Of a DNA stretch of 64,000 bases, positions 3,525 to 32,346 are shown one piece after another. The notes under the pieces were generated by a model, which worked only from the letters and a program-made list of their open reading frames with translations, did not search any database and was not told the origin of the DNA. The DNA is from an uncultured Candidatus Peribacteria bacterium. Its GTDB lineage: Bacteria; Patescibacteriota; Gracilibacteria; UBA1369. The stretch is from positions 127,797 through 191,796 of the forward strand of contig CAZNDB010000003.1 in NCBI GenBank assembly GCA_964571725.1, given 5' to 3'. Both the position numbers and the translations under genes were made by a program. Each line of letters starts with the position of its first letter. Positions within the stretch are counted from its first letter, which is position 1.

Positions 3525-3598
3525 GCGGTATTGGTTCAATGGTAGAACGCGACCTTCCCAAGGTTGAGACACGGGTTCGATTCCCGTATACCGCTCCA
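3525..3598 (+). tRNA. tRNA-Gly (anticodon CCC), CCA encoded
   Basis: Manual cloverleaf: acceptor GCGGTAT/ATACCGC, D stem GTTC/GAAC, anticodon stem CGACC/GGTTG, loop TTCCCAA, T stem ACGGG/CCCGT, T loop TTCGATT, discriminator T, CCA. 74 nt. Confidence 0.95.
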
Positions 3599-3651: not shown

Positions 3652-4485
3652 ATGATATTATTTGTTACAAGCAATACCATTTCTAATAACAGTATGACCA
3701 AAGATTGCAATGTATTTCAGCATTATTGGTTCAATCCAGGTTTGGCAGCTCTAAGAAGCGTTGAAGCACAAATCTTAAATTCAAAAATCACTCAGCTGCA
3801 TTTACAATCCTCAACCTGTGCGCTGGATATTGGAGTCGGTAATGGATATTTTAGTAACCTGTTGGATGTCCATTTCAAACTTGGAATTGATTTGCTGCCG
3901 GAGCAGCTTGAAGAAGCAAAAAAATTCAACCAGCACGATGAGTTACAAAAGTTTGACATTTCACAAAAAATCTCCTCAGGCAATCCAATTAAAGCTGATC
4001 TGATCATCTCCAATTCTGTGCTTGAACACACCTCGGACCCAAACGCCGCTATCCAGAATATTGCGAAATTTTTAATTAAAGGTGGTTACGCACTGATTAC
4101 AATCCCTCTGGAATCTTCCATTAAATGTGTTAATCCAGGTCCCAAACAAGAATACAGCCGGGTAATGAAAATATTTCTGGGCCATAAAAATATGTATAAC
4201 AAACAAAAATGGGAAAGACTGTTTCTCAAACACGGTCTTAACATAGTTGAATCAAAATACTACTTATTCAGTGAGTTTGCCGGATACATGAAGGCCTTTT
4301 CTCCATTTAAAACAATCCTGAACGAACGAGTCAGATCTGAAGTTAAATTACATGATCATTTCATCAGCGAGTTTGCTTCCCACCAAAAAGAATTGTTTGT
4401 CCCAGTAATGAAAAGAGAATTGGATCTGTTTAGAGACAATTCGGCAAATATTGGTGATTGTTTATTTCTGGTTCTGAGAAAATGA
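3652..4485 (+). CDS. class I SAM-dependent methyltransferase
   Basis: 277 aa. ALDIGVGNGYF (motif I, GxGxG), acidic residue in GIDLLPEQL, later ADLIISNSVLEHT and KGGYALIT (motifs II/III), as in small-molecule methyltransferases. Alternative start ATG at 3694 (MTKDC). Confidence 0.7.
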   Translation: MILFVTSNTISNNSMTKDCNVFQHYWFNPGLAALRSVEAQILNSKITQLHLQSSTCALDIGVGNGYFSNLLDVHFKLGIDLLPEQLEEAKKFNQHDELQKFDISQKISSGNPIKADLIISNSVLEHTSDPNAAIQNIAKFLIKGGYALITIPLESSIKCVNPGPKQEYSRVMKIFLGHKNMYNKQKWERLFLKHGLNIVESKYYLFSEFAGYMKAFSPFKTILNERVRSEVKLHDHFISEFASHQKELFVPVMKRELDLFRDNSANIGDCLFLVLRK

Positions 4486-4487
4486 AA

Positions 4488-5027
4488 TTAGTAACTATTC
4501 CATTTGATCGATTCAATTTCGGCTTTTCTTTCCAGCAGTGTTGGCCAGACTTTCTCCCGTGACAGTTTTTGTTCGGATATCTTCAAAAAACAATTAAACT
4601 TCTCCAATAATATCTGAAATTGCTTTTCATTTTCGGCCAAATGATAATAATAAGAATTGTCTATCAAATCGGCTGCCCGAACAATCAAACAAGCCGCTCC
4701 CATTCGATCAGCTTCCATAAACGACTTGAAGTATCTTGCTTTGTGATCTTCAATAGTTTTATCCAGAGTACAGGCCAGCACCATATCAAAAACGTTTCTG
4801 CCAAATCTTTCAACCAAAGTATTCTCTTCCACTGAAGAATCCTCCATTAGATCGTGAAATAACGCCGCTATGACAATGTCTTTGCCATAACCAAGATCAT
4901 AAAGCCAATAGGCAATTCTTAAGCTATGCATGAGAACCGGTTTTGTACTTCGATTAAACGTCTGTAATGCCTGTACCAAAAAAATTATAGCTTCTTCTAT
5001 TTTTTGATCATCACTTTTGTTTAGCAT
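4488..5027 (-). CDS. HD-domain phosphohydrolase, RelA/SpoT-hydrolase-like (small alarmone hydrolase architecture)
   Basis: HSLRIAYWLYDLGYGKDIVIAALFHDLMEDS matches the SpoT/Mesh1 HD...ED hydrolase motif. The track start at 5057 is TTG and overlaps the upstream gene by 47 nt; the ATG at 5027 is preferred. Confidence 0.65.
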   Translation of the reverse strand: MLNKSDDQKIEEAIIFLVQALQTFNRSTKPVLMHSLRIAYWLYDLGYGKDIVIAALFHDLMEDSSVEENTLVERFGRNVFDMVLACTLDKTIEDHKARYFKSFMEADRMGAACLIVRAADLIDNSYYYHLAENEKQFQILLEKFNCFLKISEQKLSREKVWPTLLERKAEIESIKWNSY

Positions 5028-6012
5028 TCTTATTGCAAAAACTGTAAATGTCTTCAATTTTGGCTGTTAAATCCACCGCCTGTTGATATCCGCAAACTTC
5101 ACTCCCTATACTACCGTAGATTATTGATTTTAGCACTGCCGTATAATTATGCCTGTGCCCTAAACCATATATGTCGTTTTTATCGGGTTCCGTTTCATCA
5201 TTTCCGTCCAGAAAGATAGAAGAATACTCAATTTTATTCAAGCCGGGCCCCCCAATCTTAATAGTCCCTTTTTCTCCCACAATCAGGAGAGTGTTTTCCA
5301 GATTCCGATTACTGACACAAGTCGAGAATTCCAGATTTATTGGTATCGAATGATTTTGAAGCATCACTGACATAAAATTTTCTGTTTCAATGCAATATCC
5401 CAAATCCAAAAGTTGTTTATTGGCAAACACAACTTTGGACTCATTAATATTCAGATCCGGCAACCAATGGCATAAATCAAGCAAATGTATACCCTGGTTG
5501 TAAAGTATGCCTCCTTCCTTATTTTTTATCCCTTTCCAGCTGTGTTGGTAATACTCAAATGGCCGGTACCATCTGGTTGCCCCTGCGCAATATAATATCT
5601 TCCCTAACTTTCCCTCCACCAGGGCCTTCCTTACCGTTTGTACAGCCATATTAAATCTGTTCTGCGTAATCATATACAGTCGACCCGCCCAATTGGCCTT
5701 GATCCCTCTTAATTCTGATTTGTGAAGACAAAGTGGTTTTTCAGATATACAAATTTTCCCCGCCTTTAGTACCTTTTTAATAATGGGAGCATGCAGGTGA
5801 TGAGGAGTACAAACTGAAATAATATCCGTATTTTGAATTGATTCCTCCAGTGACGCAAACTGATTTAGATGATATTTTTCTGCAAACCGGCGCCCTGTTT
5901 CCAGATCTATATCATAGACACCGCATATACCCGCCTCAGAATTTTCGGACAACGCAAGGTAGTGTTTATGGGCAATATTACCCGTTCCTATCAACGCGAC
6001 TTTTAACGGCAT
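5011..6012 (-). CDS. Gfo/Idh/MocA family NAD(P)-dependent oxidoreductase
   Basis: 333 aa. N-terminal Rossmann motif KVALIGTGNIAHKHY, EKPL motif (ISEKPLCL), and a C-terminal alpha/beta domain typical of inositol or sugar dehydrogenases. Confidence 0.85.
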   Translation of the reverse strand: MPLKVALIGTGNIAHKHYLALSENSEAGICGVYDIDLETGRRFAEKYHLNQFASLEESIQNTDIISVCTPHHLHAPIIKKVLKAGKICISEKPLCLHKSELRGIKANWAGRLYMITQNRFNMAVQTVRKALVEGKLGKILYCAGATRWYRPFEYYQHSWKGIKNKEGGILYNQGIHLLDLCHWLPDLNINESKVVFANKQLLDLGYCIETENFMSVMLQNHSIPINLEFSTCVSNRNLENTLLIVGEKGTIKIGGPGLNKIEYSSIFLDGNDETEPDKNDIYGLGHRHNYTAVLKSIIYGSIGSEVCGYQQAVDLTAKIEDIYSFCNKNAKQK

Positions 6013-6809
6013 AATGTTCTTAAATAAATGAATGAATCCAGTGTGTCCTGAACGTTTCCCGTATGGGTTTCCAGAGATAAAAATATTGGATGTTTTGGAT
6101 TTGCCTTTAACAGTTGGGCAAACACTTCTTGATAGGGAATATCTCCCTGTCCGAGAACCACATATCTTTTTCCGGTCACGTCGTAATCTTTTATATGAAA
6201 ATAATGACTTGATTCAATAACCTTCCATTCATCCCGGCCAATCACGCTGTTCCCAATTGAAAACTCGTTACCTAAATCAACCAGAGGGGAAATGTTCCCG
6301 GAATCAAATGCAGATATTCCCCCGAGTTGTTTGATAAATTTAATATTACAGATTGGTTCGTTTTCCATAAGAATTGAGATACCGGCTTTATTCGCTTTCT
6401 CAAGCAACGGCGCCAATCTTTGAACTAATGTTTGGAAACGAAAAGTTTCTGAATCCAAAAAAGAAAACACCCTGACCCTTTCGCATTTGAAGAGTTGGGC
6501 AATGTATAGGCTTCGGTCAATATAATATTCTTCCGTTTTCACTTTATTAAAGCCGAACTGATGACTAATAACTTTCTCTTCCAGATCCCATTTGTACAAA
6601 GGAGAAGCAATACAGCTCACCTGGAGCCCGGATTCGCGAAAACGGGACGCCACATGTTCCAACGTTTGATCGGACAAATTAAAAACGCTTGTGTTGTTAA
6701 AAGATCTTAACTCAATCCATACAACATTATGCTTCCTACAAAAGGAAATACATTCTTCCAGATCGGAGCTGATTTCGTCATTTATTATACTCAAACAAAC
6801 GTTCATCAT
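6003..6809 (-). CDS. sugar phosphate isomerase/epimerase family protein (xylose-isomerase-like TIM barrel)
   Basis: 268 aa. Pattern of WIELRS..., ILMENEP (conserved Glu), HIKD and LETH is typical of the AP-endonuclease-2 / IolE / dehydroshikimate dehydratase-like TIM barrel. Overlaps both neighbours (4 and 10 nt). Confidence 0.65.
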   Translation of the reverse strand: MMNVCLSIINDEISSDLEECISFCRKHNVVWIELRSFNNTSVFNLSDQTLEHVASRFRESGLQVSCIASPLYKWDLEEKVISHQFGFNKVKTEEYYIDRSLYIAQLFKCERVRVFSFLDSETFRFQTLVQRLAPLLEKANKAGISILMENEPICNIKFIKQLGGISAFDSGNISPLVDLGNEFSIGNSVIGRDEWKVIESSHYFHIKDYDVTGKRYVVLGQGDIPYQEVFAQLLKANPKHPIFLSLETHTGNVQDTLDSFIYLRTLCR

Positions 6810-7672
6810 AATTTAGCGGATAATTTCTTATAAATAGCCTCAACTCCACCCTCATCTAAATGACAGTCATTCCATATCTCAAAAGCCTTTACGCCCTGAT
6901 AGATCATCCAGTACAGTCCTCCGCAGACATGTGCACCATGCTCTTTCGCCAACTTTAAAAACTTGGTTTCAAGAGGGTTAAATATTGCATCAAAAAAATA
7001 TCTGGGTTTGTCGAAAAAAAACGCAGACTGAAGTAGATCAAAAGTTTCCACTTCCAGCAAAGAGACGGAACTTTGAGGGGACATCCCTACCGGCGTTACG
7101 TTAATTATATAGTTGATATCCTCCTGGAGTAATATTTTAGCAATGGCATACTGATCAAAAGGAATTGCTTCTTTAAGACAATGAAACCTTCCCATAAGGT
7201 TTACCGCCTTATTGTGATCCCTGTTCGTAATCCAGACATTAGACGTAAATTTTCCAAGTTCGTTGAGAACTGCCCTTGCGGCCCCTCCCGCCCCCAAAAT
7301 CAGCACCTTATCCGCCGTTTCCAGAGGTTTTAATCGTTTGGAAATTGTCGTAATCGCTCCATAACAATCCGTGTTGAATCCCTGAAAACCTTTTTCCGAA
7401 ATTTTTACGGTATTTACGGCACCACACGCTCTCACATTTTCGTCAAAGCTATCCAATAAACTCACCGCGTCCATCTTATGGGGTAACGTGATATTAAACC
7501 CTTTGAAACCAAGCTCACGCATTGACTCAAAGACAGATTTTAGCCTGCCGGCTTCCGGAACATTGATTTTAAGATGACTATAATCCAGCCCCTGCGTCTC
7601 AGCAAAATATTGAAACAAGTAGTTTGACACACTGTGCTCCACTGGGCTACCAATAAGCGCGCTGTAGTTCAT
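6806..7672 (-). CDS. aroE: shikimate/quinate 5-dehydrogenase-like protein
   Basis: 288 aa. IGSPVEHSVSNYLFQYF, GFNITLPHK, GAVNTV, GFNTDCYG and ILGAGGAARAV are all AroE-family signatures. Confidence 0.8.
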   Translation of the reverse strand: MNYSALIGSPVEHSVSNYLFQYFAETQGLDYSHLKINVPEAGRLKSVFESMRELGFKGFNITLPHKMDAVSLLDSFDENVRACGAVNTVKISEKGFQGFNTDCYGAITTISKRLKPLETADKVLILGAGGAARAVLNELGKFTSNVWITNRDHNKAVNLMGRFHCLKEAIPFDQYAIAKILLQEDINYIINVTPVGMSPQSSVSLLEVETFDLLQSAFFFDKPRYFFDAIFNPLETKFLKLAKEHGAHVCGGLYWMIYQGVKAFEIWNDCHLDEGGVEAIYKKLSAKL

Positions 7673-7676
7673 TTTA

Positions 7677-8759
7677 TCAAGTTAATGATTTATTTAAGAG
7701 AATGGAAACGTTTACAATCCTGTCTTCAACTTCGCGCTGAGGTGTTTCAAGTATACTTTCCCAGAAACTGACCACTCTCACGATATAGAGATCCGATAAA
7801 ACCGCCAGATTCTCTTTGCTGATTGGAATGTTTTTTATGACACGGGAAAGAACGCTGGCCCATTGCTGGTCTGTCACCATATCATCATCTAATGTTATTC
7901 CTTCAAATAGCGAGTTCTTGAGACGTTGCCGTAAGGACAAAAGGGCCTGCTTTTTTAAATTCAATGCCTCGGCATAATGATCAAATCTGGAAATGTCGTC
8001 TAAAAAGTAACTAGAACAAGCCTTAAGAGCCCTGTTCAGACTCCTAAAAGGACGTTTTTCAAGCTGATAAAGCAGAGAGTTGGCTATCTGCGGAAACATT
8101 ATGGCCAGATTGGGGAAACTTGCTTTATGAATTTTTTTACTTAATTTTATTTGACCAATCTTAAAAGCTCCCTGCATCGCAGAATAAGTAATAAATACGT
8201 CTATCCCATACAGCAAAGTATCCGGGTGGAAATCAATATTCAATAATGCCTGCACCAAAGCCCTGCTCATCCCAAAATCACCCGCAATAGGTTGCCGGAT
8301 GCAATATCCCGTTAAGGCATATAGTATCGGGAAAGTAAAATGATTGGTTGCACTTCCCTCAAATTTATTTCGGGAGTAAACGGGCGTAATCAAATCGACA
8401 TGGTTGCGAATAATTTGTTGTAAATAAACATCCATCCACATCGGTTCAATTGATCTCAGATCAGTGTCAAAAAGCAGCAAATAATCGTACCCATCCCTGA
8501 TCATGACTTTAAATATTTCCAAGAGGTTTGCTCCCTTGCCTCTCGGTCTGGATTTATTAACAATGCATTCCTTCGAAAAACTTATTCTGAGATTGGAAAA
8601 TACCTCTACTGTTGAGTCCGTACTGTCGCTATCCACAAGTAATATTGATGCGGAATCGTCTTTGGGCAGATATTCCCTCAAACCCTTGTCTATCGCCATA
8701 ACAACCGCTTCAATAGTTCCCTCTTCATTATACGCTGGTAGTCCTACGAGAATTCTCAT
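7677..8759 (-). CDS. family 2 glycosyltransferase (GT-A fold)
   Basis: 360 aa. N-terminal ILVGLPAYNEEGTIEAVV, LLVDSDSTDST and LLLFDTDL (DxD) match the GT2 / glucosyl-3-phosphoglycerate-synthase-like architecture. The acceptor cannot be assigned. Confidence 0.7.
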   Translation of the reverse strand: MRILVGLPAYNEEGTIEAVVMAIDKGLREYLPKDDSASILLVDSDSTDSTVEVFSNLRISFSKECIVNKSRPRGKGANLLEIFKVMIRDGYDYLLLFDTDLRSIEPMWMDVYLQQIIRNHVDLITPVYSRNKFEGSATNHFTFPILYALTGYCIRQPIAGDFGMSRALVQALLNIDFHPDTLLYGIDVFITYSAMQGAFKIGQIKLSKKIHKASFPNLAIMFPQIANSLLYQLEKRPFRSLNRALKACSSYFLDDISRFDHYAEALNLKKQALLSLRQRLKNSLFEGITLDDDMVTDQQWASVLSRVIKNIPISKENLAVLSDLYIVRVVSFWESILETPQREVEDRIVNVSILLNKSLT

Positions 8760-8795
8760 ATTCAGAATGGGTTTATTGCTATGTATTCGTGTTAT

Positions 8796-9746
8796 TTATA
8801 GTTTTGAAACGCTGGATTGAACAAATTTGACAATATCGTCAATCCTCCCTGACACATACAACAGACCTTCCGCCAACAATCTTGACATAAAAAGTTGCCT
8901 GATCTCGTATAATTCAGGACAATCAAAACTTGGCATATAATACATAAATTCTCCATTACTGCCCATACCCGGATTAGCAGTGGCACGAATATGCCGGGAA
9001 AAGTTTTCATTTAGAACCAGCTTTGTCACAAAATCATGACTATCATCTTTTACAAATAGTTTTTCTTGTCCCTGATCCACATGAACAACAAGTGCAAGTT
9101 TAAGTTGTATATTCCCCCTTGTGGATTCAATACCTAAACTTTCAGGGGCAACATATTGTTTATGTCTCCAAGTATCCAGATCTGATCCGGAAAACAACGG
9201 TAACAGATCAGGTAAATTTCTGCTTACCGATTCCTTCCTCAAGTAAACTATTTTTGTGCCGTCAAAAACTGCGGGAAACCCGTTTTCATCCATTCCGATT
9301 ATCGATAAATCATTCCCAATCAATCGTGCTTCTGCATGACGACACAATTCTATTGCCAGTGAGCTTTTCCCTGCACCTTCTTTTCCAAAAATTACTATCC
9401 CCTGCCGGCCTATTTCTACCGTTGCGGCATGGCTAGTCAAACGCCCCTTTCTTTGCCGTGCGGCCTCAGTCAAAGGATAGCACGCATATGAAAGAACCTC
9501 ACCGCTGACGCTGTCATATGGAGCCTGAAACGATACGCTGTTTTCACCGGTAATTACGTATTCAGGCTTTCCAGAGGTAAAGTCCAGCCTTGAACCCGGT
9601 AAATCCGGCTCAACCAGTCTATATCCTGGCATTGCCCGACTAAACCTTTCATGTCGATCAAACAAGGTTCTGATAATACCGGATTCGCTTGAAATCGTCA
9701 CCGCCTCACCCCCGATTTCCACACCGATTTTATCAATCTCTACCAT
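8796..9746 (-). CDS. HprK-related P-loop kinase-like protein
   Basis: 316 aa. SHAATVEIGRQGIVIFGKEGAGKSSLAIEL resembles the HPr kinase C-terminal P-loop segment. The rest is unassignable. Its start overlaps the upstream gene by 7 nt. Confidence 0.5.
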   Translation of the reverse strand: MVEIDKIGVEIGGEAVTISSESGIIRTLFDRHERFSRAMPGYRLVEPDLPGSRLDFTSGKPEYVITGENSVSFQAPYDSVSGEVLSYACYPLTEAARQRKGRLTSHAATVEIGRQGIVIFGKEGAGKSSLAIELCRHAEARLIGNDLSIIGMDENGFPAVFDGTKIVYLRKESVSRNLPDLLPLFSGSDLDTWRHKQYVAPESLGIESTRGNIQLKLALVVHVDQGQEKLFVKDDSHDFVTKLVLNENFSRHIRATANPGMGSNGEFMYYMPSFDCPELYEIRQLFMSRLLAEGLLYVSGRIDDIVKFVQSSVSKL

Positions 9747-10948
9747 GATTTTGGCATTAAATAACCTCCCAATAATTTCTGCAAATGATCATTTTTTAAA
9801 AAAACTTCACGAATAATTTTCTCAACGCCACTGCGTTCTACCGGCTCTATCCCGACACGTGCCATATATACAATGACCGAAGATGGCTCTAATAATGGTT
9901 CTCCATTATTAGTCTTAATAATTACTGTATTGGCAGAACCGAAAGCCTCATAAATGGCTCTGGAAATTTCTGCAGCGTAATATGAATGTACTCTACCGGT
10001 ATGATACACGGGATTCTTTCCGAAAGGGGCTTCCACGCTGCTGGATCGCATGATCGAAATCAATCCGTTTACCCGATTACCTCTCCCAACATACCCTTCC
10101 TCTCCAAATTCAATACAACTGCCAGTCGCAGTCAGGTAGGGGGCAGGTCGTAACGAATTTTGGTCTGCAGTATTAATTTGAAGATTTATGTCACAACCGG
10201 TACCAACCAGACTATTGGACAACGCCAGCAACTCTCTGTGCAGTTCTGCTTTATATTCAAAATACTGTTCAATTGTATGAACCTTGTGACTGATCATTGG
10301 AACGCACATCGTTACATCAAAACGCGATAAGTGCCGGACCGTCATTACTTTTATGTCCTGACCAATAAAATCAAATTTGGGAGTATAAGGATCGGTATAA
10401 AAGTAATTTTCCAGTAGCTGGGTCAAATTTTCGGCAACTGATGTTGGATAATGAGCAACAACACAAGCCGTATCGTTAGCCCATTGCTTTTTACTATCCG
10501 GTACATCGTCCAGAGTTTGAGGTCTATACCAACTGGGATTCATCGAATGATCGGACGTTTCGTGTGCAAAAATCAAGTCTTCCTCAACGTTAAGACCCGG
10601 CAACACTTTCCGTAAGTAAGATCTTGCAGCTGATTCCTGAATTTCGCGATAGGGAATTTCGGCATTCCCAAATGCAGAACTCATTCTCCCGCCAAAGTTC
10701 ACCCTAACGTTCTTAATCTTCTCACCGTATCCAAAACCTCGTTTCCAAAGACCGCCCCCTATTCCTAATTTATCTAAATTATGGTGAAGTACTGCGCCAT
10801 ACTTTTCCAGAGTATATTTCGAATACTCGATAGAAATAATCTCGGCCAAACCATCCGCAAGAGTATCAGGATGGCCCAATCCTTTTCTTTCGACAATTTC
10901 TATCGGATCATTTTGAATATCATCCTTATACAAACAAGTGATCTTCAT
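9740..10948 (-). CDS. archaeal-type S-adenosylmethionine synthetase (methionine adenosyltransferase) homolog
   Basis: 402 aa. IEIVERKGLGHPDTLADG, LHHNLDK, ANDT, GQDIKVM, INTAD, YLTATGSCIEFGEEGYVGRGNRVNGLI and FGKNPVYHTG line up with the archaeal MAT family (e.g. Methanocaldococcus) and not with bacterial MetK. Confidence 0.85.
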   Translation of the reverse strand: MKITCLYKDDIQNDPIEIVERKGLGHPDTLADGLAEIISIEYSKYTLEKYGAVLHHNLDKLGIGGGLWKRGFGYGEKIKNVRVNFGGRMSSAFGNAEIPYREIQESAARSYLRKVLPGLNVEEDLIFAHETSDHSMNPSWYRPQTLDDVPDSKKQWANDTACVVAHYPTSVAENLTQLLENYFYTDPYTPKFDFIGQDIKVMTVRHLSRFDVTMCVPMISHKVHTIEQYFEYKAELHRELLALSNSLVGTGCDINLQINTADQNSLRPAPYLTATGSCIEFGEEGYVGRGNRVNGLISIMRSSSVEAPFGKNPVYHTGRVHSYYAAEISRAIYEAFGSANTVIIKTNNGEPLLEPSSVIVYMARVGIEPVERSGVEKIIREVFLKNDHLQKLLGGYLMPKSW

Positions 10949-11673
10949 TTGTTGGGTATTAAGATATCACTCAATTTACTGCGTATATCTCTCGTATAAT
11001 CAACTCCTCTCACAATAACCACGGGTTTACCCTCAGCAGACTCGCCCATCAAAATAGAGGCAGCCGCAGCAACCCTGTCAACTATATTCATTAGCGGTTT
11101 TCCGATCTTCCCATAAAGATCCGGACCGGTCTTTTGCTCCAATCCTTTAATTCCGGAAAAACCAATCGCAGCACCGATAGAACCACCTCTATTGGCATTC
11201 CCCAGACTATCAGAAATGATTACGGAGACTTCTCTAACTTGAGATTCTATCCGTTTCCGGATTTTTTCCGCGCTTGCATCCGCATCCAATGGTAATAAAA
11301 CGACTCTTTGCCTATCTTCCTGATCAATATTAGACATGTCTATCCCTGCCGAAGTACAAACCATTCCGTTGTTGTGCTCTACTACAATTACCTTACCTTT
11401 TATATCAATAATTGATTTAGATTCCCTCAAAACCAGTTCACAGAACTCGGGAGATCTGCCGGTCTTTCTGGCCAATTCCAGAGCATATTCTGAAGGTATC
11501 ACTGTATCAAGCCAAATAAGTCTGTCCTCTGCCTTGGAAACAATCTTTTGCGCAATAACAATGATGTCCCTGTCTTGAATCGAATCAGCATAATCCATCA
11601 CCATCTCCCCCAAATCATCTCCAGGCTTTACCAGTGGAAAATTTGGTACCTCGATGACTTCTATTTTGGTCAT
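10945..11673 (-). CDS. CofE-like protein (coenzyme F420-0:L-glutamate ligase family fold)
   Basis: 242 aa. GDDLGEMV, IIVIAQKIVSKAEDR, VCTSAGIDMSN, VIISDSLGN..RGG and GESAEGKPVVIVRG match the CofE / FbiB N-terminal domain pattern. First gene of the overlapping operon. Confidence 0.7.
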   Translation of the reverse strand: MTKIEVIEVPNFPLVKPGDDLGEMVMDYADSIQDRDIIVIAQKIVSKAEDRLIWLDTVIPSEYALELARKTGRSPEFCELVLRESKSIIDIKGKVIVVEHNNGMVCTSAGIDMSNIDQEDRQRVVLLPLDADASAEKIRKRIESQVREVSVIISDSLGNANRGGSIGAAIGFSGIKGLEQKTGPDLYGKIGKPLMNIVDRVAAAASILMGESAEGKPVVIVRGVDYTRDIRSKLSDILIPNK

Positions 11674-11804
11674 ACTTGTTTAGACTCAATATTTTAAAAT
11701 TCAGGAGATTGCACATTACCAATCTTTCCACGCGTTTGTCAATTGCCCGTGCGATATTTCAATCAAACAATAACTGAAACTCAGTTCAAATAAAAAAATT
11801 CAAT

Positions 11805-11833
11805 TTGCTAATCTGTCAGCCTTGGGCTAGTAT
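11805..11833 (+). promoter_or_regulatory. putative sigma70-type promoter for typA (TTGCTA-17-TAGTAT)
   Basis: Hexamers read by eye with a 17-nt spacer, about 100 nt upstream of the typA ATG. Confidence 0.3.
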
Positions 11834-11930
11834 TCCGTGGCTAATTGGCAATAATGTTTTAAAATATACATTTCTTTCGCTTACTGCCCCGGCAAAACCT
11901 CATCTCCAAGTTAATTCTCAAGTTACCGCT

Positions 11931-13739
11931 ATGAAAACCCTCTCAATCGCTATCATCGCCCACGTTGATCACGGAAAAACCACCTTGACCGACCATCTGC
12001 TCCGCCAGGGCGGAGCCTTCAACACCCACGAAAAAGTGGAAGAACTGGTCATGGATTCCAACGACCAGGAACGCGAAAGAGGCATCACTATTTTTGCCAA
12101 AAACTGCGCCGCTTTTTACAAGGACGTGAAGATTAATATAGTTGACACTCCCGGCCACGCCGATTTCAGTTCCGAAGTGGAACGCATCCTGAAAATGGTG
12201 GATTGCGTGATTCTGCTGGTAGACGCCAAGGAAGGCCCCATGCCACAGACCAAATTCGTGCTGGCCAAATCCCTGAAGCTCGGCCACAAACCGATCGTGG
12301 TCATCAACAAAATCGATCGCAAGGACCAGCGCGCCGAAACGGTCGTGGACCAGGTCTTCGACCTCTTCGTGAAACTCGGCGCCACTGACGAACAGTTGGA
12401 TTTCCCAATTATTTATGCCATCGGCCGCGAGGGAATCGCCAAATATAATATGGAGGACGAAAGCAAAGACCTCACCCCGCTTTTTGACACTATCCTCAAA
12501 CACGTCCCCCTTTACGATGAATCTTTGGCGCAAAAACCCCTGCAAATGCAGGTTACCAACCTCGGTTATGACGATTACATCGGACGCATCGCCATCGGAC
12601 GCATACTGAAAGGAACTCTCAAGGTTGGTCAAAACGTCACCATCTGCAAAATCGACGGCAGCAAAAGGACTTCCCGCGTCACCAAGATCTTTATTTACGA
12701 AGGCGTACGCCAAACTGAAGTAATAAAAGAAGCTGATGCCGGAGAAATCGTGGCTATTGCCGGATTCCCGGACATCACCATCGGCGAAACCGTCACCGAT
12801 CCTGCGCTCCCGGTTGCCCTGCCCCTCCTGCAAATCGACGAGCCAACCCTGCAGATGAATTTTCTGGTCAACAACTCCCCTTTTGCCGGCAAGGAAGGGA
12901 AATTCGTCACCACACGCCACATCAAGGACCGTCTGGACAAGGAATTACAAACCAATGTCGGTCTCCGCGTTGAACCCCTGGAAGGAACCGACGGCTACAA
13001 GGTATCCGGTCGCGGCGAACTGCATCTGTCCGTACTAATCGAGGCCATGCGCCGCGAAGGTTTTGAGTTGCAGGTTTCCCAACCCGAAGTAATTCTTAAA
13101 GACATCGACGGCCAGAAATGCGAACCGATTGAACAACTGATTATCAGCGTCCCGGAAGAATTTTCCGGAACCGTGATCGAAAAACTGGGCCGCCGCAAAG
13201 GCGAGATGAAAGATCTGGTTACCGAAAACGGCATCACGCGCATCGAATATGAAATTCCTACCCGCGGTCTGCTGGGTTTCCGTTCCGAATTCGTCATGGA
13301 TACCCGCGGCGAAGGTCTGATGGATCACAGTTTTCTCAAATATGACGGTTACAAAGGCCTCATTCCGCACAGGGGCAACGGCGTTCTGATTTCCGGTGAC
13401 AAAGGCGTTACGGTTGCTTACGCGCTATTTTATCTACAGGAAAGAGGAACTCTGTTCGTACCGCCGGTTACTCCGGTTTATGAAGGCATGATTATCGGTG
13501 AAAACGCCCGCGGAGAAGATCTGACGGTCAATCCCTGCAAAGAGAAAAGGATGTCCAATATGCGCACCACCGCCTCCGATCAGGCCATCAAGATCACCAC
13601 GCCCCGTGAAATCACACTGGAAAGCGCGCTGGAATACATCCAGTCCGATGAGCTGGTGGAAGTCACCCCGAAGTCCATCCGTCTGCGCAAAAAGTTCCTG
13701 ACCGAACTGGACCGCAAACGCGTCTCCAGGGATAAATAA
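11931..13739 (+). CDS. typA: translational GTPase TypA/BipA
   Basis: [14 protein letters not shown] (G1), DTPGHADF (G3), NKIDR (G4), plus EF-G-like domains. The track ORF begins at a TTG at 11805, but the conserved N-terminus starts at the ATG at 11931 (MKTLSIAII). Confidence 0.95.
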
Positions 13740-15291: not shown

Positions 15292-16878
15292 ATGTCTTCA
15301 TCCAATCTCCAGACTATCGAACAAAAAGACGACGATTCCCAAAAACCCGACTCCCTGCCTCCGGAAAGCGGCGACAGAAAGCGTGAAAAAAACGAATCCC
15401 TGGAAGCCGCGGATCAATCCTCAGCTAAAATCCATGATATCAGTTCCGCTATTCATAAACGGATTATTCCGGAAGGAGTGGATCTGAGCCAATGGGGAGG
15501 AGCAAATCTGGACCGGGAATTCCTCGATGAACTTAAATCCTATGGTTTTTCCAAAAATGAAATCGAAAAATTACATATCATCCGGGGAAAAATACGCGGA
15601 TCTGCTTTCTATCAGAAAGAAGCCGACCACCGGGAACTTACACAGGCCTTGAAAACCGCCCTCGGAGACGATTTGAAATATTTATACTCCATGCTGGCCA
15701 AATTCCGGACCAATGCCGGCAAAGATTTACCCGGTCTCTCAACGCAGGAATTGGATATGGAGTTCATGGATAAACTGGGGGTCCGTTTCATCGATCTGGA
15801 AAGACAAAGGGAACGGGTGGACGAATTAATCATCAATAAATTTGGCTATCGGGACAATATCCGCAAACAACAGCTTTTCAAGCTGATCGTCAAACACAAT
15901 CCCGATATTACCCTGCTCAATCGTCTGGCAGTTTTTGTTCGCCGCATCTATTCCACCTATGACCGGAAACCCGAAATTTTCGGTGATGACCACTTTGATA
16001 ATCTGGCCTTTGGAATTATTGAAGACTGTCTGGCCAATAAAAAAATTATCACCCTGCCAATACAAAACCTGATGACCGATTTTATTGCGCGAACGCGTCT
16101 CACGGATCCCCGCCCACTTATCTCCCTTTACCCACTCTATGAAAATGACGCCGGAAAATTCAAGCAGGTACTGGACTCCCTGGAACAACTGATCCAAAGA
16201 TGGGGAACAAACACCCGTGAACTCATGATTATGATTCAAAACCTGCATCCCCTCTATCACAACAATCTGGCCAGTTTCCAGAAATGGGTGGACCGGACTG
16301 CCGGCATCCTGCAGCATCAGCCGACACACTATCGTTCTTCGGATGTCATTGAAAGCGAAGAAAGAGCCAAAGCAGAAGTTCTCAGAACCATCAAACCTTT
16401 CAATCTGGGGGGAAACCACGATTTCAGTAAAATTATGGAAAACCTGGAACCTACAGACGCCGAGACTCTGGGAAACAAACTTATGGATGAAGCCACCCAT
16501 TTCATGGATCTCTATTATTATGGAAAAGAAAGCGAAGGACTAAAAGAATATTACGATTCTTTCCTGCGCGGACTCTATGAGGGGCAATCCGTCTATATCA
16601 TTCCGGCTGCCCCGGGCCAAACCCATCCCCGTCTCGACCTGCAAAAACTGGAAGGGCTGATAAAAGTATTCCATGAAGCTTCCAAAGTAACCTATGACGG
16701 GTACTACCAGAGAGACGGGTCTTATATCAGAGATATCGAAAAGTACATCACTAAAAATACGAGTGGAAATCTGACCCTGGAACAAATTCAACACTTTTAC
16801 CGGGATCTGAGGGCAGAAACAATTAAGGAACACGACCAAAAACTGGGCCGTCCAGCTTCAAACGACACCGCCAAATAG
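15292..16878 (+). CDS. hypothetical protein (528 aa, soluble, no recognisable domain)
   Basis: Long uninterrupted ORF with its own promoter. Acidic or disordered N-terminus followed by sequence that looks helical. No motif recognised. Confidence 0.6.
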   Translation: MSSSNLQTIEQKDDDSQKPDSLPPESGDRKREKNESLEAADQSSAKIHDISSAIHKRIIPEGVDLSQWGGANLDREFLDELKSYGFSKNEIEKLHIIRGKIRGSAFYQKEADHRELTQALKTALGDDLKYLYSMLAKFRTNAGKDLPGLSTQELDMEFMDKLGVRFIDLERQRERVDELIINKFGYRDNIRKQQLFKLIVKHNPDITLLNRLAVFVRRIYSTYDRKPEIFGDDHFDNLAFGIIEDCLANKKIITLPIQNLMTDFIARTRLTDPRPLISLYPLYENDAGKFKQVLDSLEQLIQRWGTNTRELMIMIQNLHPLYHNNLASFQKWVDRTAGILQHQPTHYRSSDVIESEERAKAEVLRTIKPFNLGGNHDFSKIMENLEPTDAETLGNKLMDEATHFMDLYYYGKESEGLKEYYDSFLRGLYEGQSVYIIPAAPGQTHPRLDLQKLEGLIKVFHEASKVTYDGYYQRDGSYIRDIEKYITKNTSGNLTLEQIQHFYRDLRAETIKEHDQKLGRPASNDTAK

Positions 16879-20421: not shown

Positions 20422-21480
20422 ATGGCTCAATTAGACAAAATCTTCAAAACCGCTGTTCAGTACAAAGCTTCCGATGTCTATATCACCACAGGTACCAAGC
20501 CCATTCTGCGCATCAACGGTAATCTGATCTCCATCGAAGAACATCCGGTGCTGTCCAAAAAAATGGCTGAGGACTACCTTTCCGAAATTCTAAGCGACAA
20601 ACAAAAGGAAGAATTTTCCCGCACTCTCGATCTCGACTTCTCTCTGGAAGTACCCGGAGTTTCACGCTTCAGAGTAAATATGTTCGTCCAAAGAAAGGGA
20701 ATCGGAGCCTGTTTCCGCGTCATTCCGGAAAACGTCCACACCCTGGAAGAATTGGGACTCCCGGATAAATTAAAGGAAATTGCCGTCACCGACCTGGGTC
20801 TGGTCATCGTAACCGGTGCCACCGGTTCAGGTAAATCCACCACCCTGGCCGCCATGTTAAATGAGGTCAACTCCAAAGACGCGCGCCATATCATCACCAT
20901 TGAAGACCCCATTGAATACGTCCATGAAAACGTTAAATCCGTCATCGATCAACGTGAAGTCGGCACCCACACCCTGAGCTTTCAGAAAGCCCTGCGTTCC
21001 GCCCTGCGTGAAGATCCGGATGTAATTCTGGTTGGTGAAATGCGTGATCTGGAAACCATTGCACTGGCTCTTACCGCCGCTGAAACCGGTCACTTGGTGT
21101 TCGCCACTCTGCATACCAACGGAGCCGCCGCTTCCATCGACCGTATCATCGACGCCTTCCCGACCAATCAGCAAAATCAGATCAGAATGCAGCTGGCCGG
21201 TTCCCTGAAAGCCGTAGTCTGGCAGACACTGCTCAAAACCAAAGACGGCAACGGCCGCGTGGCCGGTCTGGAAATCATGATCAACAACAATGCCGTAGCC
21301 AACATGATCCGTAAAAACAAGACCCATCAGCTGAACTCCGCCATCGAAACCGGTTTCAAAGAAGGTATGCAAACCATGAAGAAGTCCATTACCGAGTTAT
21401 TGGAAGCCGGAATTATCAGCGAAGAAGTCGCCCTGGAAAATATTCCCGAAGACATTATCGATAACAATGCCAACGCTTAA
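20422..21480 (+). CDS. pilT: type IV pilus retraction ATPase PilT
   Basis: 352 aa. Walker A GATGSGKSTT, IITIEDPIEY (Asp box), ILVGEMRD (Walker B), GHLVFATLHT (His box), and AVANMIRKNKTHQL in the position of the PilT AIRNLIRE motif. Confidence 0.92.
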   Translation: MAQLDKIFKTAVQYKASDVYITTGTKPILRINGNLISIEEHPVLSKKMAEDYLSEILSDKQKEEFSRTLDLDFSLEVPGVSRFRVNMFVQRKGIGACFRVIPENVHTLEELGLPDKLKEIAVTDLGLVIVTGATGSGKSTTLAAMLNEVNSKDARHIITIEDPIEYVHENVKSVIDQREVGTHTLSFQKALRSALREDPDVILVGEMRDLETIALALTAAETGHLVFATLHTNGAAASIDRIIDAFPTNQQNQIRMQLAGSLKAVVWQTLLKTKDGNGRVAGLEIMINNNAVANMIRKNKTHQLNSAIETGFKEGMQTMKKSITELLEAGIISEEVALENIPEDIIDNNANA

Positions 21481-25753: not shown

Positions 25754-28700
25754 CTATTTGGCAGGAGCGGTTTGAGAACTGGCAGAGGACACTGTATCCT
25801 TTGGTTGATCGGTTCCATACAGTACTTTCTGATTGTTATAAAAATACCGCATTTGGTCCTGCGTGACAGATCCTTGCTTCAAGGCAGCAATGAAACTTTC
25901 TACAGTCATCCCTTGAGGCGGTACCAAAATATTTTTTATTTCTGGAAATTTATTGATCGTATCAGCAATTGTCCTCTGACCTGCTGAACCAACATTATAA
26001 TTGGATTCTACAATCAAGACACCAATTTTTCTGCCAGCTTCTCTGGCGGCATCAGTTCCTTCCCGTTCTCTGGTCATTACCGGCACAGCTTCCGGAACAT
26101 TGCCTATTGTGGCCGGAGCTTTAGGCGCCTGGGCTGGGGGAACCTGTGCTGGAGCCGCTTGGGGTTTTACCGAAACACCAGCCAGATAACCGGGCTCGTT
26201 ATTAACGGCCATATTGATCAGGGTTGAAACGGCATTTTTTTCAGCGTTCATGGCCATATGTCTGTTTCCCCCCTCCACAAAATTGTTCCAACCCGGTGCG
26301 ACAGATATTTCCATCCCCTGTGATGTTTTATAAAAATTCAGGGTCAGGGGTTTTTCGTTACCAGGCATTCCAGCCCGGACATTGAAACTGACTGAGTTTT
26401 CCGATACCGAGGAATTTCCTTCAATTCTTGACAAGAATAATTTACTCGTATCAAAATTTTCAGTTTGATTAATCTTGTTTAACGCAGCTAAAGGCAACTC
26501 TTTCCAGTTTGGAGAGTTGGCAAATTCTTTAAAAGTTGGATAAGGTTTTGTCTTTGCCTCCTGATATTCCTTTTGGGCTGCTGCTTGAGTCTCCTGATCC
26601 TTTTTATAACGGGGATATTCTTTCTTATTTTTCTTATTTTTCTCATTTTCCTGATATTCCTTATAAAAGGTCTTGGGGTATTTGATGACTTTAATTAAAG
26701 CCTCCTGAAAACGACGGTCATAGGTCTGCAAAGGCTCCGTGCTTTTCATCGCGCCAAGTTTAGTCTGAACCGCTTTCAAAGCTTCCTCCATTCCGGCGGC
26801 ATAAGCCTTTTGGGCTTCGACAAAATCTCCATAACCCATTGTATTCCAACCCGCTTCCGTCTGATCTGCGTTCAACAGAACTCCAACAAAAGCCCGCGTA
26901 CTGGGCAGATTTTTTAAGATATTCTTACCGTCCTTCTCCATTGGTAACTTTTCGTTATCATTGACCACGCTATCAAAGTTTTTTCTGAACGGAGTCCCGG
27001 CAATAATTTTCCTGACCCGTGATTGGTACGAAGAACTCTCGGTATTTTCCCCGTCTTTGGGTTTCAATTCCGCAATGGGAAGTTTTGAGATCAACTCCCA
27101 CATCTGCTTAATATAATATAACACTTTTACTTTTTCACCAGTCCCTGCCGGAGTACTATCCCCCACTTCTTTGGCCAGTAAATATTTTCTTACCCTTTCA
27201 TAATTTTCCAGTTTTGGAACGCCCTTTAAAACATTATCAACAGCTGCAATTTTTATTTTGTTGTCATTGGGCACTTCTGTCGGTTCCTTGTCATCATGCA
27301 AAACATTAATCTTCGGTTTCGGTTCCTCCGGAGGTTTCGGCTGTTCCTTACCAGGTTCCACAGTAGCCGGTTGTTCTTTTGGGGGTTCCAATCCCTGCGG
27401 TTTGACTATGAAATAGCCCTCATTTCTGGCCCGGCGAAACTCCTGTAAATTCGGTTCCGTCGGTGTACCCAAATTAAACATTCTGGCGGACATTCCATCG
27501 ATCGAAAGATAAGCAAGTCCATCCGGCGACATCGAAGTTATGCGTACATTATCAGGCCTTTCAAACGTACCGCCGAATGTGGCGGAATGCTTGGCGTTAA
27601 AATTATCCAGCATTTTACCAAGTCCTTGTTCAGATACCTTCTCTCCCCCCTTGGTAGTCATCTGTTCCTTCTGTACAGCCAGCAAGCTTAAAGCCTTATT
27701 AACTGCCATTCCTGGTTCTCCGTGAAAAGTCCCCAATTGTTGCCCGAGGGGAATCAGATTAAACTTAAAATCTCCATTACCGTTATGAATTATTTGCAGG
27801 CTCTGAGGCGGATCAAGTTTCTGCATCCAGTCAATCACCAGGATATGCCCCTTGTCTCCGGATTCCTGTACTTTACCGTTTGCGGCTTCCATATTGCGCA
27901 TAGATCTGATATTCAATACCTCTCCGGCATTCAGACTTCGCGCCATTGATTGAATCAATTTCAATCCTTTTTCTGGCCCCTTTTCAGTTCCCATTTCTTC
28001 AAAAAACCTTCTTTCCATTTCCGCCTGCTCATCGCGGGGATCTCTGTCATCCGGATGTTCCGCCCTATCCTGTAATTGTTTTAGAGTTCTCATCATATCC
28101 GAAAAACCACCTGCCCTAAAACGGTATTCACCTTGGCGATTAACACTGCTATGTACAACCCTGACATCTAGTTCGCCATGCAGCAATGACTTAATATTAA
28201 CGCGCGGATCTTTGGACAGCCCCACAGCCCAGTCAAATTCATATTGTACTCCTCCGTCTTTATCTTCGGGACCATTATCAACAGTCAATCCCCAGGCCTC
28301 AAAATTCGACTTATCTCTGACGGTCTTACTTTGAGCTTCCTGTAAGATAGACCCGTCATTTAATCTGGCCGCATAATACTTTTGCGCTTCCTGTAATCCG
28401 GCTTTTCCTTCAGCTTTAGGGTTATAGTCCGACAGAATTTTCCCGGAATCCATCCGCAAATAATAATCACCACTCTTACCTTTATAGAAATCACAGGCGA
28501 TTGCTCCATCACCAAGGGGAACATTTACCTTCACCGGAGGCCCGTCATTATATTGCAATATTTGCTGCAAAGCTGGCAAATACCGTTTATCCACCTCCGC
28601 AACATCTTTTTTATTTAATAATTTTGCCACCTCCTGTTCAGTCCCGTCTAGGGCCGTTGATTTGGGTTCTTTATCGGCCTTTTCCTGTGCAGCCTTGGCA

Positions 28701-31660: not shown

Positions 31661-32346
31661 TAATTTCTGGCGGTGATTAAGGTCTGATATTTCAAATCAA
31701 ATTTAACCGTGTCCAATTTCGATCCCACGTCCAGATACATTCTCACCATCGGTTGCAGCTGGGTGGCCAGATCTTTTGCCGAACCGGCACCCTGGGGATC
31801 TTTCTGGGGCAATATTTCAAAACGCACGTCGTTCACTTTCAGATTGGAGAAAGCAAATTCTTTGTAATCTCCGCAACCGTTTCCTTCACCCTCCGTTGCA
31901 GCATTCTCATAACCGCTTTCCAGCTGCCACGAACCGTTCAGACTCCTGTATCTCTTCAGACAGACTTTCTGCGTCACCGGATCAAATTTAATAATGCTGC
32001 TGGTTAAACCGTCCCGGGAAATGGTGCGAAGATTATCACCGGAACTAACCGTCAGAAGAGCGGAATCGTAACATCTCACCAGTGACATCTGATTGAAAAC
32101 GATGTTTTCCCCGAAATCCTGGTTATAACAAAAATAATCCACGGTTCCTTCGCGCATTTCATTGTTCACGTAATCCACAAAATTGCGCAGTTCGGAATAA
32201 ATCTGTCTGGTTTCATTGGCCGACTTCTGAGCCCGTATCACCTGCAGATAAGCGTCAACGGCAACCACCATAAACCCCATGAAGATAGCAATTGCAATCA
32301 GCAATTCGATCAGGGTGAAACCTTTTTGTCTTTTGGGGTTTTTCAT
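31660..32346 (-). CDS. prepilin-type N-terminal cleavage/methylation domain protein (minor pilin)
   Basis: 228 aa. MKNPKRQKG|FTLIELLIAIAIF is a canonical class III signal. Confidence 0.85.
   Translation of the reverse strand: MKNPKRQKGFTLIELLIAIAIFMGFMVVAVDAYLQVIRAQKSANETRQIYSELRNFVDYVNNEMREGTVDYFCYNQDFGENIVFNQMSLVRCYDSALLTVSSGDNLRTISRDGLTSSIIKFDPVTQKVCLKRYRSLNGSWQLESGYENAATEGEGNGCGDYKEFAFSNLKVNDVRFEILPQKDPQGAGSAKDLATQLQPMVRMYLDVGSKLDTVKFDLKYQTLITARN

Follow-up and report, generated by a model that had tools for sequence, protein, structure and literature searches.

The stretch of DNA analysed here (64 kb in all, and called the window below) comes from a Candidatus Peribacteria genome and carries a predicted eight-gene operon on its minus strand (4488–11673). 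At the 5′ end of this operon stand genes for a homologue of F420-0:gamma-glutamyl ligase (CofE), a protein with the fold of archaeal-type methionine adenosyltransferases (MATs) and a P-loop kinase. Five further genes, overlapping or separated by gaps of at most 37 nt, encode a family-2 glycosyltransferase (GT2), an AroE-like dehydrogenase, a TIM-barrel protein, a Gfo/Idh/MocA oxidoreductase (GFO) and an HD_4 phosphohydrolase (Table 1). The gene set recurs in other bacterial phyla, and it very probably represents a dedicated, conserved pathway that belongs neither to F420 biosynthesis nor to housekeeping metabolism.

The three leading genes had been singled out in a preliminary description of the window. 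Their open reading frames (ORFs), with overlaps of 4 and then 7 nt, lie where that description placed them – with the correction that all three are on the minus strand and read from right to left – and the peptides it quoted (IEIVERKGLGHPD, GRGNRVNGLI, GKNPV and GKEGAGKSSLAIEL) all occur in the translations. Its first two family assignments proved sound: the CofE-like protein matches PF01996 (E=2.9e-59) and scores 219.3 bits with TIGR01916 (cofE; cutoff 180.65), and the MAT-like protein matches PF01941 over its full length (E=1.1e-87; 294.9 bits over residues 3–383), with E values of about 1e-56 to solved MATs. The third protein was said to show only an HPr-kinase-like P-loop, and what is found there is indeed a weak local HprK match in the P-loop region. 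Two aspects had been overlooked. The AroE-like dehydrogenase and a swappable phosphoesterase also belong to the conserved set, and the MAT-like protein lacks the conserved residues of the methionine side-chain pocket of characterised MATs, so that its role as an ordinary S-adenosylmethionine (SAM) synthetase may be questionable.

A word-indexed search of 5.8 billion proteins returned 26 relatives of the kinase, and a full-profile search of 1.84 billion gave 167 representatives with an E value of at most 1e-30, and 461 when the limit was 1e-10; an exact look-up of the window kinase sequence gave no record. Scanning species-representative genomes with the kinase profile yielded 20 genome loci, from Peribacteria, Falkow-, Berkel-, Nealson-, Buchanan- and Saccharibacteria, from metagenome-assembled genomes (MAGs) of gut Eubacteriales/Clostridia, from an Acidobacteriota MAG, from Streptomyces sp. 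NPDC003717 and from the cultured Streptantibioticus parmotrematis Ptm05. By tblastn, nearly all of these loci contain the CofE-like, MAT-like, kinase and GT2 genes, and every neighbourhood of a kinase relative that was examined keeps the MAT-like, kinase and GT2 genes, almost always together with the CofE-like one. The co-occurrence of cofE-like and HprK-like genes, which the preliminary description had proposed to look for, is thus found: among 26 non-redundant loci the kinase is present in 25 and the CofE-like gene in 22, alongside GT2 (25), the AroE-like gene (19), HD_4 and a metallo-β-lactamase-type (MBL) hydrolase (13 each), the TIM-barrel gene (9), GFO (8) and the methyltransferase (2).

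The association also holds when the MAT-like gene is the starting point. The three nearest MAT homologues that were looked up (43–57% identity) all lie inside such clusters, and a metagenome scan with the MAT-like alignment found at least 584 relatives, from which 80 loci were fetched. The context test was confined to MAT-seeded loci flanked by 3 kb or more to each side. Where the MAT carries the motif GEEG (type A, described below), the kinase is present in 16 of 16 loci, GT2 in 15, the CofE-like gene in 13 and the AroE-like gene in 11, whereas none of the 15 loci with other motif-classified types (GDEG, GDDG and others) has any of the four (Fisher p=6e-8). One further locus, L051, was left unclassified by the motif expression; it has GEEG in the alignment, together with GT2 and a Pol-β-like gene in the place of the kinase.

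Across 68 type-A loci, gene content is kept and gene order is heavily shuffled, which speaks strongly for a functional link between the genes, as opposed to synteny that was inherited. The tightest pair is formed by the MAT-like gene and the kinase gene, which lies directly downstream of it in 46 of 59 loci; the AroE-like, TIM-barrel and GFO genes, in this order, make up a stable sub-block, with the latter two fused in L030. The core of the cluster consists of the MAT-like, kinase and GT2 genes; the CofE-like gene, the AroE-like gene and one phosphoesterase gene are usual, and the TIM-barrel–GFO block is optional. HD_4 fills the phosphoesterase slot in the window and is elsewhere joined or replaced by an Apyc1-like MBL, PHP or HAD protein, and in both L025 and L051 a Pol-β-like nucleotidyltransferase takes the place of the kinase (in L025, at 11231–12627, it is accompanied by a 190-aa protein without a family match). 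That the trio is part of a dedicated, conserved and uncharacterised pathway including a glycosyltransferase, as had been suggested, is borne out by this recurring gene set, and a literature search found no description of the cluster.

Around this core the cluster varies with its host. In gut variants it is extended by an adenosine-deaminase-family protein, by a small P-loop protein resembling nucleoside monophosphate (NMP) kinases, by an APH protein and by a radical SAM/SPASM gene; in Streptomyces the additions are M16 peptidases, a cyclase, a PF14907 nucleotidyltransferase and an APH gene in antisense. A second GT2 recurs as a partner in 12 loci and serine recombinases in 3, a GT4 is likewise recurrent, and the annotated partner families that recur across 67 loci are glycosyltransferases and recombinases. 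Large serine recombinases beside the cluster in L030 (1–966) and L034 (12107–13609) are consistent with mobility; L030 also has a Rep-like gene and, like the window, typA/bipA near the cluster. Viral contigs scanned with the MAT-like alignment gave a single weak match (25% identity), and the reading of the cluster as a phage module was rejected on this result. The two largest families of conserved small ORFs (33 and 28 loci) were traced to antisense artefacts of conserved genes; the window ORFs 8503–8820 (+) and 11336–11578 (+), antisense to GT2 and the CofE-like gene, recur across loci as 'conserved' families and were likewise rejected as genes, being by-products of sense genes that are conserved. 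The MAT-like gene of L001, the Peribacteria MAG GCA_964580335.1, is called at 8820–10007 as pieces of 60 and 326 aa, owing to a frameshift or an assembly error or because it is a pseudogene. In one patescibacterial locus (L003, 5261–6109 and 16486–20711) genes for two UbiA-type prenyltransferases, a polyprenyl synthase and DXS lie on the flanks of the cluster; these may be there by coincidence, or may hint at a prenylated aromatic.

The MAT-like protein shares with archaeal-type MATs the full-length PF01941 domain and the motifs HPD, HHN, Tyr273, GRGN and GKNP, its catalytic, ATP and triphosphate motifs being intact. It departs from them elsewhere. The four solved archaeal enzymes – MjMAT (7P83), TkMAT (4L4Q), PfMAT (6S81) and SsMAT (4HPV) – all have D-L, GDDG and SQIGKP; numbered as in MjMAT, the window protein has GEEG for GDDG, Asn for the universally conserved Ile351 (TNNGEP) and Asn-Pro for Asp146-Leu147, and its gating loop, with the motif W-Y-x-P, is 5–6 residues longer than in solved MATs (five in the alignment with these four enzymes). 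In the published MjMAT structures His58 contacts the methionine carboxylate, Tyr273 and Asp146 contact adenine, and Leu147 and Ile351 form a hydrophobic pocket round the S-methyl group. The homologues of Ile351 are Ile303 in the E. coli enzyme and Ile317 in that of B. subtilis, this Ile being conserved in bacterial MATs, and the L147A/I351A variant of MjMAT has a larger pocket and accepts bulky S-substituents. Taken together, the intact catalytic and triphosphate motifs and the altered pocket residues indicate that fold and ATP chemistry have been kept and the pocket for the nucleophile side chain rebuilt. The substitutions extend beyond the window: among context-verified cluster copies GEEG is found in 26 of 26 and Asn at the Ile351 position in 19 of 26, and among 119 close homologues Asn occupies position 351 in 104 and Pro position 147 in 93.

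Three types of archaeal-type MAT can be told apart in this material. Type A has GEEG, T(R/N)NG(D/E) – that is, Asn at MjMAT Ile351 – and a gating loop of the form W-[FY]-x-P-[RK]...D[LV]P[ED]; type B, from a Parcubacteria genome and Bacilli MAGs, has GDEG, SQ(S/M)G and a longer loop; and type C is canonical, with GDDG, SQIGK and D-L. A stand-alone type-C copy passes NF003366 (506.6 against a cutoff of 435), and types A and B lie below the cutoffs: the window protein misses all five NCBIfam MAT cutoffs (best NF003362, 376.7 against 481), and five other cluster copies do likewise. Type B enzymes (L070–L103; for example L081, L105 and L076) stand alone in bacterial contigs, with exact matches in Parcubacteria GW2011_GWC2_39_14 and in 'Bacilli bacterium' MAGs (up to 408 contigs), and are probably the housekeeping MATs of those bacteria, although they too fall below all NCBIfam MAT cutoffs. 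The suggestion that the MAT-like gene of the window is not simple housekeeping is well founded, since its subtype occurs only inside the cluster and other archaeal-type MATs in bacteria stand alone. Streptomyces species have characterised bacterial MATs of their own, and the cluster copy is therefore an extra one there.

The CofE-like protein is about 40% identical to Archaeoglobus fulgidus CofE (Af-CofE; 2PHN, E=2e-43) and 42% identical to a bona fide CofE encoded in a cofE-cofD-cofC operon (L033); with NF009809 and NF009810 it scores 215.1 (cutoff 274) and 140.7 (cutoff 304), both below cutoff. The preliminary description had placed this enzyme outside an F420 context, and in keeping with that view no cofC, cofD or FO-synthase gene was found among the scanned window ORFs – the Pfam scan took in the operon ORFs and 20 larger ORFs at 13.8–54.3 kb, and left out those at 1–3.4 kb and 54.3–64 kb – or in the dozen or so cluster loci with Pfam annotation. 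In L026 one weak CofC-like match lies some 6 kb from the cluster. A review of F420 does not have Patescibacteria among the phyla that it lists as producers.

In F420-bound CofE structures, Phe92 stacks on the deazaflavin and Gly153–Cys155 cover it. In the window protein Phe92 of Af-CofE is replaced by Val, within a clade-specific K-G-[RK]-x motif, and Arg154-Cys155 by Asn-Ala (Arg234 lies outside the alignment); the motif [FW]RRG has become NRGG in the window, and in most of the cluster copies it reads (D)REG. The phylogenetic check proposed in the preliminary description bore out the separation from true CofE in part. In a neighbour-joining tree – a comparison that leaves out the L012 copy – most cluster copies group apart from two true CofEs, those of A. 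fulgidus and L033, but the divergent, Streptomyces-type copies of L021 and L024 lie outside this group, and the copy of L031, which is not from a cluster, nests within it. L031 (3627–11349, Streptomyces triculaminicus) encodes a CofE-like protein that is 45–53% identical to several cluster copies and 45% identical to that of the window; it is encoded in another cluster, again not one for F420, together with GT4, cupin, methyltransferase and SDR genes, and looks like a further recruitment of the CofE fold.

[quoted passage not shown] A precedent for glutamylation of a non-F420 carboxylate within the CofE family is the chlamydial CofE-like 'FolC2' (TIGR04132, a putative folate gamma-glutamate ligase), with which the window protein is not to be equated: it reaches 78 bits against a cutoff of 350, and there are no folate genes nearby. 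We infer that the enzyme keeps the GTP-dependent glutamate-ligase chemistry and applies it to another carboxylate; that it glutamylates a carboxylate other than that of F420 is probable on these comparisons.

The kinase had been assigned to the HprK-related kinases, an assignment that the profile scores do not uphold: 28.1 bits with TIGR04355 (family B) and 20 with TIGR04352 (family A), each with a cutoff of 200, and 23.1 against 240 with TIGR00679. The match to PF07475 (HprK_C; 25.1 bits against 33.3) is restricted to profile positions 8–50 of 171 and spans only the His / Walker A / N-D segment, and several homologues match HprK_C and Pfam PF27840 ('ScmC'). An alignment of the family has 39 invariant columns, among them H106, GKxGxGK and N145-D146. 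The best PDB folds for its AlphaFold2 model (pLDDT 90.9) are phosphoenolpyruvate carboxykinases (PEPCKs; E=1e-9, TM 0.45–0.50), and we take the fold to be the PEPCK/HprK P-loop fold. These neighbours are small-acid kinases. With HPr kinase/phosphorylase, HprK-related A and B and ScmC the window kinase therefore shares the His/Walker-A/(N)D segment and the PEPCK-type P-loop fold, but its scores are 10-fold under their cutoffs, only about 45 residues match, and no HPr or phosphotransferase system (PTS) context is seen, with no PTS gene among the scanned window ORFs. The further proposal that the operon is a variant of the neighbourhood formed by HprK-related, CofD-like and ATP-grasp proteins – presumably the 'GAK system' defined around TIGR04352 and TIGR04355 – fails as well: there is no CofD-like or ATP-grasp gene in the Pfam-annotated loci, and none of the GAK partners (CofD-like, ATP-grasp, PqqD, radical-SAM maturase) belongs to the core of the window cluster.

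The GT2 protein scores below the cutoffs of PF21969 (MGS_GT, 21.6 against 27) and NF010496 (GpgS, 64.3 against 262). Its PDB matches are to GpgS only (E=3e-6), and its FDTDL aligns with IDSDL of Mycobacterium tuberculosis GpgS, the DxD motif of the GT-A fold. The cluster resembles the GpgS–GpgP, MpgS–MpgP and MGS pathways in having a relative of GpgS with a kinase and a phosphoesterase alongside, which fits a route through a phospho-intermediate; it differs in that the GT2 is very distant and that the MAT-like, CofE-like and AroE-like proteins have no counterpart in compatible-solute pathways. The AroE-like protein passes TIGR00507 (205.5 against 200.2) and finds its best PDB match in M. jannaschii AroE (E=9e-40). 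Its HSxS, NxTxPxK, VNT, NTD and Gln motifs are intact, and 16 of 17 cluster copies preserve them for the most part, with NAD replacing NTD and VNA replacing VNT in L009 and L030; other aro genes were seen neither among the scanned window ORFs nor in the annotated loci. For the TIM-barrel protein there was no PDB sequence match, and a single-sequence AlphaFold model reached a pLDDT of 39.6. The best PDB matches of the GFO protein are 3Q2K and 3Q2I (E=1e-30), followed by WbpB and DgpA-type sugar 3-dehydrogenases; the first two, named 'oxidoreductase' and 'dehydrogenase' in the search output, are presumably WlbA UDP-sugar 3-dehydrogenases.

Table 1. Features of the operon and its immediate surroundings in the window
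Feature	Position	Strand	Remarks
tRNA-Gly(CCC) at the low-GC boundary	3525..3598	+	ARAGORN + Rfam; G+C drop
Class I SAM-dependent methyltransferase, convergent with the operon, lineage-specific accessory	3652..4485	+	PF13489 E=7e-17
HD_4 (SpoT/Mesh1-type) phosphohydrolase, last gene of the operon	4488..5057	-	PF13328 E=7e-10; TIGR00691 hydrolase part only
Gfo/Idh/MocA oxidoreductase, sugar or NDP-sugar 3-dehydrogenase type	5011..6012	-	PF01408 + PF22725
Xylose-isomerase-like TIM-barrel protein, accessory block with GFO	6003..6809	-	PF01261 E=5e-16
AroE-like shikimate-type dehydrogenase	6806..7672	-	TIGR00507
Family-2 glycosyltransferase, GpgS/MGS (glycosyl-glycerate synthase) type	7677..8759	-	PF00535 E=4e-10
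P-loop kinase, PEP-carboxykinase/HprK fold, related to Pfam 'ScmC' PF27840	8796..9746	-	316 aa
Type-A MAT-like protein (archaeal-type methionine adenosyltransferase fold), cluster-specific subfamily	9740..10948	-	402 aa; PF01941
CofE-like putative GTP-dependent carboxylate:L-glutamate ligase	10945..11673	-	242 aa; operon gene 1; PF01996
Divergent intergenic region between operon and typA/bipA, presumed promoter region	11674..11930	.	TTGACA-N18-TAATGT upstream of the CofE-like ATG

The preliminary description had spoken of an 'island', which base composition and a tRNA gene support: G+C content is 0.38–0.42 at 4–12 kb against 0.44–0.52 in the rest of the window, the low-GC stretch being bounded by tRNA-Gly(CCC) and typA/bipA. 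No convincing att-like direct repeats flank it, and no integrase was found. Rfam gave no riboswitch, either for the window at the gathering threshold or for the operon leader at a permissive threshold; promoter and terminator scans of the window did not rise above shuffled expectation, and the PADLOC defence models gave nothing relevant for it. The rest of the window covered by the Pfam scan is housekeeping in character, with genes for the methionyl- and glutamyl-tRNA synthetases (MetRS, GluRS), type IV pili, FtsH, TilS, SecA, FtsK and acetate kinase. No bacterial metK motif occurs in the 64 kb, which is uninformative for the genome as a whole. A 1372-aa ORF without a Pfam match (25754–29872, minus strand) lies amid type IV pilus and type II secretion genes (T2SSE at 20422–21480, a pilin-like N_methyl protein at 31660–32346 and T2SSF at 33781–34971); the ORFs 30317–31660 and 15292–16878 are also without a match. 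A bacterial class A RNase P RNA (41643–42110, plus strand; 157 bits) measures 468 nt against a model of 367 positions, and the extra length suggests insertions.

Very probably, then, the MAT-like and CofE-like proteins are copies that have become specialised, and serve neither housekeeping nor F420 synthesis. The operon as a whole may well be – though we put this at slightly under even – one copy of a widely scattered, horizontally moving and undescribed biosynthetic cluster for a soluble small molecule. On this reading, the AroE-like enzyme, with or without the GFO/TIM-barrel block, would form a shikimate-type hydroxy-carboxylic acid; the kinase would phosphorylate this acceptor; the GT2 would glycosylate the phosphorylated acceptor, much as GpgS uses 3-phosphoglycerate; the phosphoesterase would remove the phosphate, in the manner of GpgP and MpgP; the CofE-like enzyme would activate the free carboxylate with GTP and cap it with L-glutamate; and the MAT-like enzyme would use ATP to provide a building block of 5′-adenosyl or SAM type rather than a supply of methyl donor. 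A shikimate-type moiety in the product is almost an even prospect, and the succession of kinase, glycosyltransferase and phosphatase is put forward somewhat more tentatively; the swapping of phosphoesterases and the exchange of kinase for Pol-β-like protein fit a transient phosphate or nucleotidyl group. The SpoT-type HD_4 hydrolase, the Apyc1-like MBL and the adenosine-deaminase-family and NMP-kinase-like genes of gut variants are hints of a nucleoside. Type A has roughly an even chance of still making SAM, and the case for the enzyme as provider of a building block rather than supplier of methyl groups is evenly poised. It is rather doubtful that the enzyme makes no SAM and instead moves the 5′-adenosyl group of ATP to another nucleophile, or adenosylates an S-substituted homocysteine, with the CofE paralogue glutamylating as in F420.

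Several observations weigh against this biosynthetic reading. The first 20 loci were chosen by their kinase and so form a biased sample, and many of the loci come from MAG or metagenome contigs. The CofE-like protein scores above the TIGR01916 cutoff and is as near to true CofE (40–46% identity) as to the cluster copies in other phyla. Type B MATs also lack Ile351 (they have Ser or Met) and share the W-F-x-P-R loop; being probably functional MATs, they mean that an altered pocket is no proof of a new substrate. None of the core partners comes from a known SAM-using family, which leaves the role of the MAT-like protein unexplained either way. HprK-like and ScmC-like kinases elsewhere have protein or peptide substrates, and the intact AroE motifs could reflect ordinary shikimate dehydrogenase activity. 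Co-transcription of the eight genes is predicted from their overlaps only, and each step of the proposed scheme draws on co-occurrence and on homology at the level of families.

Among other explanations, the one closest to the preliminary description makes the MAT a normal SAM synthetase, supplying SAM locally to the adjacent methyltransferase for a small molecule which undergoes phosphorylation, glycosylation and perhaps glutamylation as well. The methyltransferase gene does abut the operon and lies inside the cluster in L001, the only locus outside the window with a homologue (34% identity), and a few variants carry radical SAM genes; the MAT-like protein, for its part, keeps the catalytic, ATP- and carboxylate-binding motifs. 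The idea of a dedicated SAM supply loses ground, however, because a methyltransferase homologue is present in just 2 of the 68 cluster loci (the window and L001) and in 0 of 42 metagenome type-A loci, because genes for SAM users of any kind turn up only here and there, in contrast to the MAT-like gene, which is universal and has its closest linkage with the kinase, and because the residues holding the S-methyl group have been replaced, so that we regard it as unlikely. A self-protected nucleoside-type antibiotic or toxin seems unlikely to a similar degree. Here the MAT-like enzyme would join C5′ of adenosine to a sugar or acid, the kinase or nucleotidyltransferase would mask the product within the producing cell and the phosphoesterase would unmask it on export. 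The exchange of kinase and Pol-β nucleotidyltransferase, extra APH genes, swappable phosphoesterases and the adenosine-deaminase-family, NMP-kinase-like and Apyc1-like genes of gut variants would suit such a product, as would a cluster that is rare and horizontally mobile, adjoins regulators in Streptomyces and serine recombinases in three loci. Thuringiensin (β-exotoxin), which is built from adenosine, glucose and a phosphorylated sugar acid and is phosphorylated last, offers an analogy in its architecture of adenosine, hexose and hydroxy-acid and in its late phosphorylation by a small kinase. The likeness is chemical only: the thu cluster uses a carrier resembling those of non-ribosomal peptide synthetases, has no MAT-like, CofE-like or HprK-like gene and, sharing no core enzymes, was rejected as a homologue. 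A conserved exporter is also missing, and retention in the tiny genomes of the Candidate Phyla Radiation (CPR) is not readily explained. To our knowledge, moreover, O-adenosylation by a MAT fold has never been shown.

The remaining alternatives fare worse. Modification of a peptide or protein, in the manner of ribosomally synthesised and post-translationally modified peptides, would have the HprK/ScmC-like kinase phosphorylate Ser before glycosylation and glutamylation. HprK-like kinases phosphorylate lasso-peptide precursors, and the kinase homologues with ScmC and HprK_C matches, the M16 peptidases and PF14907 nucleotidyltransferase of Streptomyces versions and the radical SAM/SPASM genes of gut versions all tend this way. 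Yet no conserved small ORF emerged, the families that were traced (the two largest) being antisense artefacts, the narrow gaps of the window operon leave no room for a precursor gene, the kinase as a whole is nearest to PEPCK in fold, and the AroE, GpgS-like and CofE-like partners are small-molecule enzymes, which makes this reading very unlikely. Chance neighbourhood of housekeeping genes – the MAT being the only SAM synthetase and AroE serving aromatic amino acids – finds some backing in the stand-alone archaeal-type MATs of Parcubacteria and Bacilli MAGs, in the lack of a metK motif in the window and in an AroE-like protein that passes its family cutoff. It is rendered more improbable still by a type-A MAT never seen outside the cluster in the sample (16 of 16 against 0 of 15), by the rarity of the cluster (167 kinase representatives among 1.84 billion), by its presence in Streptomyces, which have metK, by content kept despite shuffled order and by the position of the operon in a low-GC stretch. 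A genuine CofE building the tail of F420 or of its 3-phosphoglycerate form (3PG-F420) is the most improbable case: the TIGR01916 match and the 40% identity to the A. fulgidus enzyme speak for it, but a true cofE adjoins cofD and cofC, as in L033, the scanned window and the Pfam-annotated loci have neither these nor FO synthase, Patescibacteria are absent from the producer phyla of the review, and the Phe that stacks on deazaflavin has gone.

What is new in the biosynthetic reading favoured here is that paralogous subfamilies of MAT and CofE are joined in an undescribed cluster; that the reaction of the MAT-like enzyme is itself new is doubtful. MAT is regarded as the only SAM-making enzyme family and as strictly housekeeping, so that a large paralogous subfamily with a rebuilt pocket, inside a biosynthetic cluster, would mean either a new reaction for the fold or a new stoichiometric use of SAM. 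If the more doubtful reading, in which the MAT-like enzyme makes no SAM, is true, the cluster would yield an unrecognised class of adenosyl glycoconjugates, perhaps cofactor-like or antibiotic, made by Streptomyces, Patescibacteria and common gut Firmicutes. Where a genome lacks F420, its CofE-family genes are now annotated automatically as F420 ligases, probably wrongly for hundreds of proteins. Some ultra-small CPR bacteria keep few multi-step biosynthetic capacities, of which the cluster is one; it is also found in abundant gut bacteria, with one gut CofE-like protein indexed in 124 blocks of the collection of assemblies, and its presence in a cultured actinomycete, S. parmotrematis Ptm05, makes it experimentally testable.

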